Source: Escherichia phage vB_EQ1. From it: a stretch of DNA of 64,000 bases. Position 1 is the stretch's first letter, and each line of letters starts with the position of its first letter. Where the stretch lies: the sequence record PQ516281; one strand, 5' to 3'. The notes beneath the pieces are model-generated. The model did not search any database. It was given only the letters and a program-made list of their open reading frames with translations, and was not told where the DNA came from. The translations under genes were made by a program, and so were the position numbers. This document shows, piece after piece, positions 23,512-25,087 of this stretch.

Positions 23512-23651
23512 CACCATATTAATGAACGAATAGCCATTATAACATCTGAAATGAAAAGCACTACTTGGATTAGTCCAAACATCACACCATAGTACAGAAC
23601 CGTAAGCAACAACAAGAGCCCGAAGGCTCCTGCTAAGATTTTCTTAATCAT
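23512..23651 (-). CDS. small hydrophobic membrane protein (about 46 aa)
   Basis: Hand translation: MIKKILAGAFGLLLLLTVLYYGVMFGLIQVVLFISDVIMAIRSLIW; start overlaps upstream stop; below ORF-track size cutoff. Confidence 0.4.
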
Positions 23652-23797
23652 TACTCGCCTTTTAATACGTTAAGAAGAGCTAAGACCGCTAAGGTACCTT
23701 GTGATACGGCCTGTTGAAATACTGTTGTTTCACCTGTAACTAAAGTGTTAACGAATAAAAACGACCAACACAGCAATGCAATAATCCATGCTACCAT
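23651..23797 (-). CDS. small hydrophobic membrane protein (about 48 aa)
   Basis: Hand translation: MVAWIIALLCWSFLFVNTLVTGETTVFQQAVSQGTLAVLALLNVLKGE; between ndd and 52. Confidence 0.4.
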   Translation of the reverse strand: MVAWIIALLCWSFLFVNTLVTGETTVFQQAVSQGTLAVLALLNVLKGE

Positions 23798-23849
23798 TTT
23801 AATTACCTCAAAAATAAATTAAAGGCCTATTAAGCTAGGCCCGTATAAA

Positions 23850-24296
23850 TTAGTAACTCTGCAGAATGAATTTGAAATTATCTGCCAGAAGACGGTTCAT
23901 TTCAGTGAGTGTTTGATACTCTGATGTATGGTTGCGAGTGAATGCCAGAGTCAATTGTCCTTTACCATAACCAGTAGTCAGTGGTTTCATGTTCTTAGCT
24001 GCAACAAAGATTACATCATATTCAATATTGTTAGTGCCCATAGTACGGGCTAGTTGCGAACGGCCTTGACGAATATGAGAAAGAATTGCATCCAACCCTT
24101 GTTTAGAACGTTGACGTCCTACAAAGAATCGTGCTGCTACTTGTCGCCAATCAGATGAACCTTTAACGAAGAAGTAAAAACCTTCACGAGAACGAAACTC
24201 TTTAGAAACTTCAGAACCGTATTCGCCATTACGAACTACTGCAACAACTTCACCACCAACTGTCAGAAGGTCTTTACGAGTTAAATATTTGGACAT
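23850..24296 (-). CDS. ndd: nucleoid disruption protein Ndd
   Basis: 148 aa with [12 protein letters not shown]...[14 protein letters not shown]...[12 protein letters not shown], matching T4 Ndd as recalled. Confidence 0.85.
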
Positions 24297-24372
24297 GCTA
24301 ATTTCCTCAATTGATTAATGTTTTTGTAATCCATGAGAGCATTATACTCTGCTCTCAAGAGTTTGTACAATT

Positions 24373-24573
24373 TTATTCGGCTATATCAGAACGTTCAAAA
24401 AGCTCTTCAACAGTTAAACATTCAGTGTCATCTTCAATAAAGAATCGAGTCCAACACGTTGGGGCGATACAGTTATGAGTTTGTCCGGCGATAGAAGCTA
24501 CACGAATAAGCTGCTGACCATTATTCAGAACAAATTTTTCACCAATTTCAACATCTTTAAAAAGCTTAGCCAT
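24373..24573 (-). CDS. hypothetical protein
   Basis: ORF track 66 aa; early promoter at 24602..24631. Confidence 0.55.
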   Translation of the reverse strand: MAKLFKDVEIGEKFVLNNGQQLIRVASIAGQTHNCIAPTCWTRFFIEDDTECLTVEELFERSDIAE

Positions 24574-24601
24574 TTTGTGTTCCTTGTGTTTTGATAGGAC
24601 T

Positions 24602-24631
24602 ACTATACCATAATCCTACCGTGATGTAAAC
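24602..24631 (-). promoter_or_regulatory. early promoter GTTTAC-N18-TATAGT
   Basis: Upstream of gene at 24373..24573. Confidence 0.5.
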
Positions 24632-24823
24632 AATTAAATTACATTAAAATATGTTAAAGCCAACCATGTTCCAGTGAACGAACATGCAATGTAAAAACCA
24701 GTATCACAAATTGTTCTTAGTACAATAAGAAGTGCATTTTTCATAAGTACCTCAACACAATTGAAAATATTATACAAATCATTGGGATACTAAGCAACCA
24801 TATTCCGATCCACATTTTAGAGC

Positions 24824-25087
24824 TCATATCTCAACTTCCGCGAGTTCCATATATCCTTTATTGATAACCTCTTTAAGGTCTTTAGAAAGAATAACACCAA
24901 AATGGTCGTTCATATGCCCGTTAACTAAACGAGTTATTTCGGCTTCAGATGACATATAAGGCACGTCTGAGTCCCAATGAGATAGACCCAAATGGGTGTA
25001 AATCATCCCTTCGTCATCTGCAGTGTTGTACATTGAAACAAATTCGCCTGTTACTTTATGTTTTGCGTAGAAAAATTTAAATTTCAT
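24824..25087 (-). CDS. hypothetical protein
   Basis: ORF track 87 aa; early promoter at 25114..25143. Confidence 0.55.
   Translation of the reverse strand: MKFKFFYAKHKVTGEFVSMYNTADDEGMIYTHLGLSHWDSDVPYMSSEAEITRLVNGHMNDHFGVILSKDLKEVINKGYMELAEVEI

Follow-up and report, generated by a model that had tools for sequence, protein, structure and literature searches.

Four tiny hydrophobic open reading frames (ORFs) on the minus strand of the window, that is, the whole 64,000-nt stretch of phage DNA analyzed here, are very probably small early T-even membrane-protein genes lying between rIIB/denB and the topoisomerase gene 52, with products that probably reside in the inner membrane. Conservation is the decisive evidence that they are genes: purifying selection is seen in the annotated frames only. 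Public records already contain the genes, their families and the one known phenotype, that of ac, so the observation is correct and ordinary.

Gene order and annotation of the locus

The window belongs to a Mosigvirus, an RB69-like T-even phage, and is 100% identical to OQ031495 and 97-98% identical to many RB69-like genomes. Its gene order parallels that of T4 (rIIA-rIIB-denB-...-ndd-ac-52.1-52). Between 52 and ndd, T4 carries 52.1, ac and stp, whereas the window carries 52.1 and ac. The 36-aa and 28-aa ORFs are found beyond ndd as seen from gene 52, in the block ndd.1-ndd.6, within a coupled 87-28-36 unit headed by an 87-aa ORF. The features are as follows.

23511-23651, minus strand: 46-aa ORF, gene 52.1 orthologue, DUF7396; MIKKILAGAFGLLLLLTVLYYGVMFGLIQVVLFISDVIMAIRSLIW
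23536..23560, minus strand: candidate middle promoter of gene 52, with MotA box and -10 motif (TGCTTT, 13-nt spacer, TATAAT), within the 3' half of 52.1
23651-23797, minus strand: 48-aa ORF, ac orthologue; MVAWIIALLCWSFLFVNTLVTGETTVFQQAVSQGTLAVLALLNVLKGE
23823..23842, minus strand: terminator-like hairpin with T-run, separating ndd from ac where stp lies in T4; GGGCCTAGCTTAATAGGCCT then TTAATTTATT; consensus match only
23850..24296, minus strand: ndd, nucleoid disruption protein, 148 aa; Pfam PF06591, E = 3.9e-88; 58% identical to T4 Ndd
24341-24369, minus strand: promoter-like site upstream of ndd; consensus match only
24373..24573, minus strand: ndd.1 homologue, 66 aa, hydrophilic; 45% identical to T4 Ndd.1; phrog_2183, E = 1.5e-30
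24602-24630, minus strand: promoter-like site upstream of ndd.1, near-identical to the one at 25114..25142; consensus match only
24634-24744, minus strand: 36-aa ORF, read from ATG, Mosigvirus-specific, phrog_18561; MKNALLIVLRTICDTGFYIACSFTGTWLALTYFNVI
24741-24827, minus strand: 28-aa ORF, ndd.6 homologue; MSSKMWIGIWLLSIPMICIIFSIVLRYL
24824..25087, minus strand: 87-aa hydrophilic ORF, RB69ORF270c family; phrog_2390, E = 1.2e-42; annotated in RB69 and others
25114..25142, minus strand: promoter-like site of sigma-70/T4-early type ahead of the 87-28-36 unit (TTTACA, 17-nt spacer, TATAGT, upstream TG; 10/12); consensus match only

An Rfam scan of positions 23300-25300 returned no match at E values up to 1, which leaves no RNA-gene alternative for this region. 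A search of IMG/VR gave only three loci. The initial annotation had described a coupled pair of small hydrophobic genes of 46 and 48 aa between 52 and ndd, which is borne out by both their overlap and the frame-specific conservation described below. It had added two further peptides of '29-36 aa'; both are real and conserved, but their sizes are 28 and 36 aa. Its description of the ORFs as unannotated holds for some records (RB69 RefSeq, APCEc01), but not for that of phage 55, which annotates all four, and the exact sequence of each carries a public accession. Among the records examined, the 28-aa ndd.6 homologue is unannotated in RB69 RefSeq, APCEc01, F2, RB51 and WG01, and the 36-aa ORF in those of RB69 and F2. 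The practical value of the analysis lies in annotating omitted small ORFs; as discovery it adds little.

Coding status of the four frames

Short ORFs abound in this region (86 of at least 20 aa within 6.5 kb), and ATG-ORFs of 28-59 aa number 205 over the window, so an ORF by itself is weak evidence. The four could accordingly be chance frames in AT-rich intergenic spacers, made hydrophobic by T-rich codons. Chance hydrophobic ORFs do arise, as at 53739-53849, within a 386-aa ORF but in another frame. Ranked by their best 19-residue segment, three of the four fall within the top ~5%, but the 36-aa ORF is unexceptional and only moderately hydrophobic (top ~20%; best 19-residue KD 1.56); GRAVY values of the four peptides span 1.07-1.81. 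Against chance stands, above all, a nonsynonymous deficit that is specific to the frame in all four cases. Across 10 Mosigvirus loci and the window, the nonsynonymous/synonymous proxy was 0.07 for the 28-aa ORF (p = 7e-4), 0.13 for the 36-aa ORF (p = 5e-4), 0.27 for the 48-aa ORF (p = 1.4e-3) and 0.31 for the 46-aa ORF (p = 0.02), in tests on some ten closely related, non-independent genomes with small counts. In eight shifted-frame controls, the ratio was ~1 or more in five and 0.58-0.60 in two, the remaining one having no synonymous changes, and no control showed a significant nonsynonymous deficit (P 0.23-1). Variable sites are concentrated at third codon positions (0, 1 and 6 by codon position in the 28-aa ORF), and indels are 3-nt in length, as in PNJ-9, where a deletion in the 36-aa ORF keeps the frame; the sole exception comes from phage F2, whose 36-aa ORF is frameshifted and broken by 1 nt inserted into an A-run. 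Reading-frame conservation in related phages, which the initial annotation had set as its check, was thus found.

The arrangement of starts and stops likewise speaks against chance. The stop of the 48-aa ORF overlaps the start of the 46-aa ORF (TAATG), 4 nt separate the stop of the latter (23511-23513) from the ATG of gene 52 at 23506, and ATGA overlaps link the 87-aa, 28-aa and 36-aa ORFs in a chain. Three of the four starts have a Shine-Dalgarno motif ahead of them (GAGG or AGG..GAG); at the fourth, that of the 28-aa ORF, there is a weak GAG only, and translation probably relies on coupling. A profile family was found for each of the four, and 52.1 has remained at 46 codons across four genera under a low dN/dS. 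Taken over all four ORFs, chance origin has a very low probability, and for 52.1, ac and ndd.6 it is already refuted. The homologous T4 proteins went undetected in an omics study (Class_P = NA; PMC9697503 Table S2).

For 52.1, one might suppose that the region is conserved as regulatory DNA, carrying a MotA-dependent middle promoter and the initiation signals of gene 52, rather than as a functional peptide. The TGCTTT-13-TATAAT motif is indeed kept, even at synonymous positions, in seven genomes from four genera (window, RB69, T4, RB51, JS10, VR25 and WG01). Outside the motif, however, synonymous sites are near saturation (pS 0.66-0.76 in comparisons with T4 and with the Dhakavirus and Gaprivervirus relatives) and the amino acids are kept; the ORF has acquired no stop or indel in the genomes compared, and, whatever family the preceding gene belongs to, the 52.1 start is in every case coupled to it. 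We consider a purely regulatory explanation improbable. Constraints on promoter motif and peptide probably coexist, and the embedded promoter-like motif may account for part of the conservation of 52.1.

Families and relatives of the four peptides

The 46-aa ORF matches Pfam PF24129 (DUF7396) with 81.1 bits (cutoff 27) over positions 1-46 of 46, and phrog_3595 with E = 1.8e-23, a PHROG that T4 gp52.1 matches as well. It is 74% identical to T4 gp52.1, a 'conserved hypothetical predicted membrane protein' that is likewise 46 aa long and encoded 4 nt upstream of gene 52. The C-terminal segment LYYGVMFGLIQVVLFISDVIM is nearly invariant between the two proteins, whereas the hydrophobic N-terminal stretches differ, with AGAFGLLLLLTV set against GYSLALAALLVA. 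We found tblastn matches to 52.1 in 714 phage records, and its length is 46 codons in all seven genomes compared. Between genera, dN/dS is 0.05-0.16 where estimable, synonymous sites being saturated in the pairs of window or RB69 with T4 or RB51. A single-sequence AF2 model of the protein consists of one helix (residues 2-45; pLDDT 96), and a sequence search of the PDB gave no relevant match.

The 48-aa ORF adjoins 52.1 on its upstream side and lies downstream of ndd, as ac does in T4, and a GAGG Shine-Dalgarno motif stands 8 nt ahead of its start. It matches phrog_2501 over model positions 1-48 of 50 (E = 3.2e-22), the family to which T4 Ac (NP_049877, 51 aa; E = 2.2e-25) also belongs, and it agrees residue for residue with AAP76166.1, 'Ac acridine resistance protein [RB69]'. 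Identity to T4 Ac is 34% over 38 residues, with RB51 Ac bridging the pair; the motif CW..T..VF.Q..QG is conserved between them, and window G34 aligns opposite T4 G38, the glycine of the QG element, which is changed to arginine (G38R) in an acridine-resistant T4 variant (bioRxiv 10.1101/2025.06.30.662393). A homologue search with Ac returned four clusters only, all near-identical. The single-sequence AF2 prediction places helices at residues 2-21 and 25-47. Both proteins, at ~50 aa, would consist of two hydrophobic helices with a short polar turn between them. When the 48-aa protein was searched against PDB chains (phmmer, E up to 10), only three unrelated proteins were returned. In the copy of Pfam searched, the 48-aa, 36-aa and 28-aa ORFs lack a family, and in NCBIfam all four do.

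The two phages differ in the detail of this junction: ac and 52.1 overlap by 1 nt (TAATG) in the window and by 8 nt in T4, and ac is preceded by the terminator-like hairpin in the window but by stp in T4. In Dhakavirus and Gaprivervirus, the ac slot is occupied by phrog_9347 proteins (WG01_264, VR25_280; 53-55 aa) that have two hydrophobic segments and an 8-nt overlap with 52.1, yet belong to another PHROG family than Ac, with undetectable similarity. By these family assignments, the slot upstream of 52.1 appears conserved and its occupant variable.

Aligned end to end, the 28-aa product and T4 Ndd.6, likewise 28 aa, are 54% identical, and they share the motif MSS..W...W..SIP.IC..F. The ORF matches phrog_8851 over positions 1-28 of 28 (E = 3.7e-11; T4 Ndd.6, E = 1.6e-17), and homologues with the motif MSSK.W..W..IP.IC..F occur in JS10, VR25, WG01 and RB51. 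The 87-aa stop and the 28-aa ATG overlap (ATGA); in the window, RB51, JS10 and VR25 the ndd.6 homologue is coupled to this upstream ORF, whereas T4 lacks the latter. The product has a single hydrophobic segment, and such a helix would fit the inner membrane better than the outer. The label 'outer membrane protein' in the T4 record of Ndd.6 is an old prediction.

The 36-aa ORF matches phrog_18561 over positions 1-36 of 36 (E = 1.4e-29), and the model begins at its ATG, not at an upstream TTG. This ATG overlaps the 28-aa stop (ATGA) and is preceded by a GAGG Shine-Dalgarno motif. The ORF occurs in 152 phage records, each of Mosigvirus type and with an identity of at least 90%. Among 1.84 billion representative proteins it formed one 50%-identity cluster, its own, and with E values up to 10 allowed, phrog_18561 was the only PHROG match. 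By these searches, it is a Mosigvirus-restricted orphan without a T4 counterpart. No link to T4 ndd.2-ndd.5 emerged, a position-by-position comparison with Ndd.4-type proteins giving ~5/36 identities. The out-of-frame ORF at 53739-53849, which is hydrophobic and weakly resembles T4 Ndd.4, was discarded.

Putative expression and action at the host membrane

The layout suggests that minus-strand early transcription would start at host-type promoters that precede the 87-aa ORF, ndd.1 and ndd and would read through into ac-52.1-52, and that the four ORFs would be translated via coupling to their neighbours. Transcripts of T4 52.1, ac and ndd.2-ndd.6 have been classed as early (PMC9697503 Table S2). 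Most likely, each of the hydrophobic, helical peptides of 28-48 residues would insert into the host inner membrane, where gp52.1, the Ndd.6 homologue and the 36-aa peptide are judged most likely to bind host inner-membrane proteins as well.

Ac is the only one of the four with a known phenotype, the acridine sensitivity of T4-infected cells. A cellular protein of similar build is E. coli AcrZ, a 49-aa inner-membrane protein that binds AcrB and modulates its substrate range. Ac is comparable to AcrZ in size and, like it, would be helical and membrane-embedded, a likeness that would be one of function only. When all PDB chains were searched with E values up to 10, no relevant match appeared for Ac, and its proposed effect, a block of efflux, differs from the modulation exerted by AcrZ. 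According to a preprint (bioRxiv 10.1101/2025.06.30.662393), deletion or mutation of T4 ac confers acriflavine resistance, and expression of Ac renders E. coli sensitive to acriflavine and ampicillin, an effect that G38R abolishes. The same preprint gives an ESMFold two-helix description of T4 Ac. That Ac blocks AcrAB-TolC is a proposal of its authors, put forward in this single preprint (bioRxiv 10.1101/2025.06.30.662393), and PMC13250531 adopts it as a working assumption. If the model is right, Ac, too, would act through AcrAB-TolC, as AcrZ does. Extrapolating from T4, cells making the two-helix Ac of the window would accumulate acridines and other hydrophobic cations, and by this analogy Ac plausibly represents the membrane-acting host takeover that the initial annotation had in mind. 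The homologue set of the preprint holds T4-type Ac only (93-100% nucleotide identity) and excludes the RB69 type (bioRxiv 10.1101/2025.06.30.662393), and our literature search found no acridine phenotype for RB69-type Ac. As a divergent natural variant that keeps the core motif, RB69-type Ac offers a possible test of the Ac-AcrAB-TolC model.

The initial annotation also placed the peptides where T4 has ac and stp and considered an anti-restriction role. The ac orthologue is present, but Stp is missing and the other gene is 52.1. T4 Stp, a 26-aa activator of the host PrrC anticodon nuclease, is the only anti-restriction-related peptide of the T4 region. It shares with the window peptides only its small size and general neighbourhood, between ndd and 52. 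That the four are Stp-like, soluble anti-restriction effectors acting on host restriction or anticodon-nuclease systems could be argued from the presence of stp in the corresponding T4 interval and from its retention directly after ndd in Dhakavirus and Gaprivervirus relatives. Stp, however, is a basic, hydrophilic 26-mer, unlike the hydrophobic window peptides, and their families carry no anti-defence annotation. The window itself contains no Stp homologue (the top tblastn hit, at 87-134, falls in an unrelated place and has E = 0.14), and none of the Mosigvirus loci examined has an Stp ORF, whereas JS10, VR25 and WG01 carry one. The anti-restriction role therefore lacks support, and such a reading is very improbable.

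Two further readings draw on the T4 deletion saΔ9, in which 52.1 through denB are missing: phage yield falls to ~50% of wild type, and the stimulation of phospholipid synthesis, notably of phosphatidylglycerol, is lost (PMC6071114). The peptides might thus act on membrane lipid metabolism or the envelope, with at least one driving the phosphatidylglycerol stimulation and the acridine phenotype arising as a side-effect on permeability. Several of the deleted genes are predicted to encode membrane proteins (PMC6071114), and early work, as cited in the preprint, ascribed the ac phenotype to increased uptake (via bioRxiv 10.1101/2025.06.30.662393). However, the lipid phenotype has not been traced to any one gene of the interval, most of the T4 genes located there (ndd.2 to ndd.5, stp) are absent from the window, and Ac expressed alone sensitises cells to two AcrAB-TolC substrates (bioRxiv 10.1101/2025.06.30.662393), all of which makes a lipid role doubtful. 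By analogy with the proposed Ac-AcrAB-TolC interaction, gp52.1, the Ndd.6 homologue and the 36-aa peptide might instead each be a dedicated modulator of a specific host inner-membrane machine, with Ac and 52.1 forming one unit and one peptide explaining the phosphatidylglycerol loss in saΔ9; we rate this, too, as rather unlikely. Candidate targets of such modulators include an efflux pump, a lipid-synthesis enzyme and a membrane-bound defence effector.

Literature searches on the functions of 52.1 and the ndd.x genes gave only the Kutter 2018 review, and the main texts of CRISPRi-ART and HIDEN-SEQ do not mention these genes. T4 52.1 and ndd.6 both lie within a deletable block whose loss lowers yield only about two-fold in laboratory strains.

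Gene order in the region

The four tiny hydrophobic ORFs that the initial annotation had placed between gene 52 and the rIIB side were confirmed at their positions, with sizes of 46, 48, 36 and 28 aa. The surrounding 1.8-kb stretch was 100% identical to Escherichia phage MRostami-2023e and 97-98% identical to some 150 Mosigvirus (RB69-like) phages. The minus strand carries every gene of the region.

Genes of the region, in the direction of transcription
29135-26922, minus: rIIA
26912-25977, minus: rIIB
25649-25987, minus: DUF7418 ORF, between rIIB and denB
minus: denB, between the DUF7418 ORF and the 87-aa ORF
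25087-24824, minus: 87-aa ORF
24827-24741, minus: 28-aa ORF
24744-24634, minus: 36-aa ORF
24573-24373, minus: ndd.1 homologue
24296-23850, minus: ndd
23797-23651, minus: 48-aa ORF
23651-23511, minus: 46-aa ORF
23506-22181, minus: topoisomerase gene 52

This keeps the T4 layout (rIIB-denB-ndd.6...ndd.1-ndd-stp-ac-52.1-52) with fewer small genes. Convincing counterparts of stp, ndd.2, ndd.2a, ndd.3, ndd.4, ndd.5, denB.1 and motA.1 were absent from the 64-kb window, and a pattern scan placed a terminator-like hairpin where stp would lie; an early guess at stp thus found no match. For T4 Ndd.4, tblastn gave at best a weak hit (E = 0.007), to a 36-aa hydrophobic ORF at 53739-53849 (minus); we rejected that ORF as a chance one, since a 386-aa ORF encloses it in another frame and it matches no PHROG. 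Residue 1 of T4 DenB (185 aa) aligns with a window ATG at 25713, and the RB69 and APCEc01 records give a 158-aa DenB whose start corresponds to 25632; a DenB of the longer form would run about 65 nt into the DUF7418 ORF (25649-25987) upstream. In an IMG/VR metagenome contig (L005, 1710-1973), W38 of the 87-aa ORF is replaced by an in-frame stop, with the flanking small ORFs intact.

Coding status of the four ORFs

An open frame of this size is no evidence of a gene here: 86 ORFs reach 20 aa or more within 6.5 kb, and the window has 205 ATG-ORFs measuring 28-59 aa. Hydrophobicity placed three of the four among the top ~5% (best 19-mer KD 2.62, 2.39 and 2.19 for 28, 46 and 48 aa, respectively); the 36-aa ORF was only moderately hydrophobic (1.56, top ~20%). 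The window was aligned to ten further Mosigvirus loci, which are closely related, non-independent genomes giving small counts; changes from the consensus codon were classed as synonymous or nonsynonymous and weighed against how many sites of each class there are (binomial p). Variable sites at codon positions 1/2/3 numbered 0/1/6 (28 aa), 4/2/7 (36 aa), 9/2/10 (48 aa) and 4/2/9 (46 aa). The nonsynonymous/synonymous proxy was 0.07 (p = 7e-4), 0.13 (p = 5e-4), 0.27 (p = 1.4e-3) and 0.31 (p = 0.02) in the same order, similar to the neighbours ndd (0.13), ndd.1 (0.09) and the 87-aa ORF (0.14). Neither shifted frame of any gene showed a significant nonsynonymous deficit (P 0.23-1), their ratios being mostly ~1 or more, with a few at 0.58-0.60. 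Both clean alignment indels were of 3 nt: PNJ-9 lacks a Leu codon of the 36-aa ORF, and F2 an Ile codon of the 48-aa ORF. The exceptions were a replaced Ac C-terminus in UGJNEcP2 and a 1-nt A-run insertion after the 36-aa ATG in F2 (L007, NC_054913; locus 750-760, window equivalent about 24738), a frameshift that may reflect either a homopolymer sequencing error or real gene loss. The F2 record is filed under Tequatrovirus, and this region of it is Mosigvirus-like. Overall, the expectation that the reading frames persist in related phages held, given the frame-specific nonsynonymous deficit, third-position variation and 3-nt clean indels. Rfam returned no RNA family in the region.

Identities and the Ac slot

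The four ORFs are a rediscovery of known small T-even genes, with nothing new in kind. By family match, the 46-aa ORF is gp52.1: it scored 81 bits against Pfam DUF7396 (cutoff 27), falls in phrog_3595 and is 74% identical to T4 gp52.1. With tblastn, gp52.1 was present in 714 phage records; across genera it has exactly 46 codons, and dN/dS between genera was 0.05-0.16 where dS was estimable (synonymous sites were saturated for window/RB69 versus T4/RB51 pairs, which hence give no ratio, and T4-RB51 is near-identical and uninformative). The 28-aa ORF is, judged by its 54% identity to T4 Ndd.6 and its place in phrog_8851, an Ndd.6 homologue; relatives occur in JS10, VR25, WG01 and RB51, and among the Ndd.6 homologues dN is 0.2-0.5 and dS 0.9 or more. 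The 36-aa ORF (phrog_18561) was found in 152 records, every one Mosigvirus-type and no less than 90% identical; HMMER, run exhaustively against 1.84 billion cluster representatives, returned its own cluster only, making it a genus-restricted orphan.

The description of these ORFs as unannotated is true of some records only. Phage 55 has all four annotated, and public accessions exist for all four exact sequences; APCEc01 and PNJ-9 omit the 28-aa ORF, the former annotating the other three, F2 omits the 36- and 28-aa ORFs, and RB69 RefSeq has entries for 52.1 and ac and none in the 250-nt stretch with the other two. The ndd.6 homologue is likewise present and unannotated in RB69 (L011, about 3213-3462), RB51 (L015, about 1095-1180) and WG01 (L014, about 926-1015). 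A further small hydrophobic ORF at 56585-56728 (minus; 47 aa, MKAITIGLLLLMLVMTIYWSLTAPVMIPTLVIGWIMIGLQAKYECFN) matched phrog_3610 (E = 6.8e-27) and is probably another real small membrane-protein gene.

The initial guess at ac was borne out, as phrog_2501 membership (E = 3.2e-22; T4 Ac, 2.2e-25) and identity to the deposited 'Ac acridine resistance protein [RB69]' mark the 48-aa ORF as Ac. Its pairwise identity to T4 Ac is a modest 34%, bridged by RB51 Ac, and CW..T..VF.Q..QG is conserved in the alignment. Single-sequence AF2 predicted helices 2-21 and 25-47 for Ac (pLDDT 80), in agreement with the ESMFold two-helix description of T4 Ac (bioRxiv 10.1101/2025.06.30.662393), and one long helix 2-45 for gp52.1 (pLDDT 96); these models support a helical hydrophobic peptide, and nothing further.

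Among the four proteins, Ac is the only one with a phenotype. In T4, deletion or point mutation of ac confers acriflavine resistance, whereas Ac made from a plasmid renders E. coli more sensitive to acriflavine (by about 3 log) and to ampicillin, an effect abolished by G38R; for T4-type Ac only, the authors propose that membrane insertion blocks AcrAB-TolC (bioRxiv 10.1101/2025.06.30.662393), which later work restates as an assumption (PMC13250531). The glycine equivalent to G38 is conserved in the aligned 48-aa protein and, by analogy, we infer that this protein would act as T4 Ac does, inserting into the membrane and blocking AcrAB-TolC. The proposed anti-restriction role was unsupported. 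T4 saΔ9, deleted from 52.1 through denB, still yields roughly half as much phage as normal, and its infection no longer stimulates the synthesis of phospholipid, phosphatidylglycerol in particular (PMC6071114), indicating that the block is not essential for growth on laboratory hosts and is in some way linked to the membrane. T4 52.1, ac and ndd.2-ndd.6 transcripts are classed as early, and their proteins were undetected by mass spectrometry (PMC9697503 Table S2).

Different phages fill the conserved slot upstream of 52.1 with different proteins. Tequatrovirus and Mosigvirus carry Ac (phrog_2501), whereas Dhakavirus and Gaprivervirus hold an unrelated 53-55-aa two-segment hydrophobic protein (phrog_9347), coupled to 52.1 by an 8-nt overlap.

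Positions of the phrog_9347 protein
JS10 (L012), 2447-2608; ORF unannotated in its record
VR25 (L013), 2441-2608
WG01 (L014), 2378-2539

The usual Mosigvirus Ac ends in ...KGE with a TAATG overlap, whereas that of UGJNEcP2 (L010, 1701-1853) has a T4-type C-terminus (...KASND) and a T4-type 8-nt overlap, which suggests that recombination has joined the two types at the ac/52.1 boundary.

Coupling, start signals and promoters

The stop of the 48-aa ORF overlaps the start of the 46-aa ORF (TAATG), gene 52 starts 4 nt beyond the stop of the latter, and two ATGA overlaps chain the 87-, 28- and 36-aa ORFs. The starts of the 48-, 46- and 36-aa ORFs have a GAGG or AGG..GAG motif in front of them, and that of the 28-aa ORF a weak GAG only. 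Consensus scans of the window placed putative early-type promoters upstream of the 87-aa ORF, ndd.1 and ndd. Near-identical early-promoter-like elements (TTTACA, 17-nt spacer, TGnTATAGT) precede ndd.1 (24602-24630, minus) and the 87-aa ORF (25114-25142, minus), both leading into an identical TAGTCCTATC leader, and resemble a promoter cassette that has been repeated. The 52.1 coding sequence contains two MotA-box plus -10 motifs (23536-23560 and 23586-23608, minus). The first, GTGCTTTTCATTTCAGATGTTATAAT, is conserved, synonymous positions included, across the window, RB69, T4, RB51, JS10, VR25 and WG01; it is likely a middle promoter for gene 52 and probably places a further constraint on 52.1 in its 3' half.
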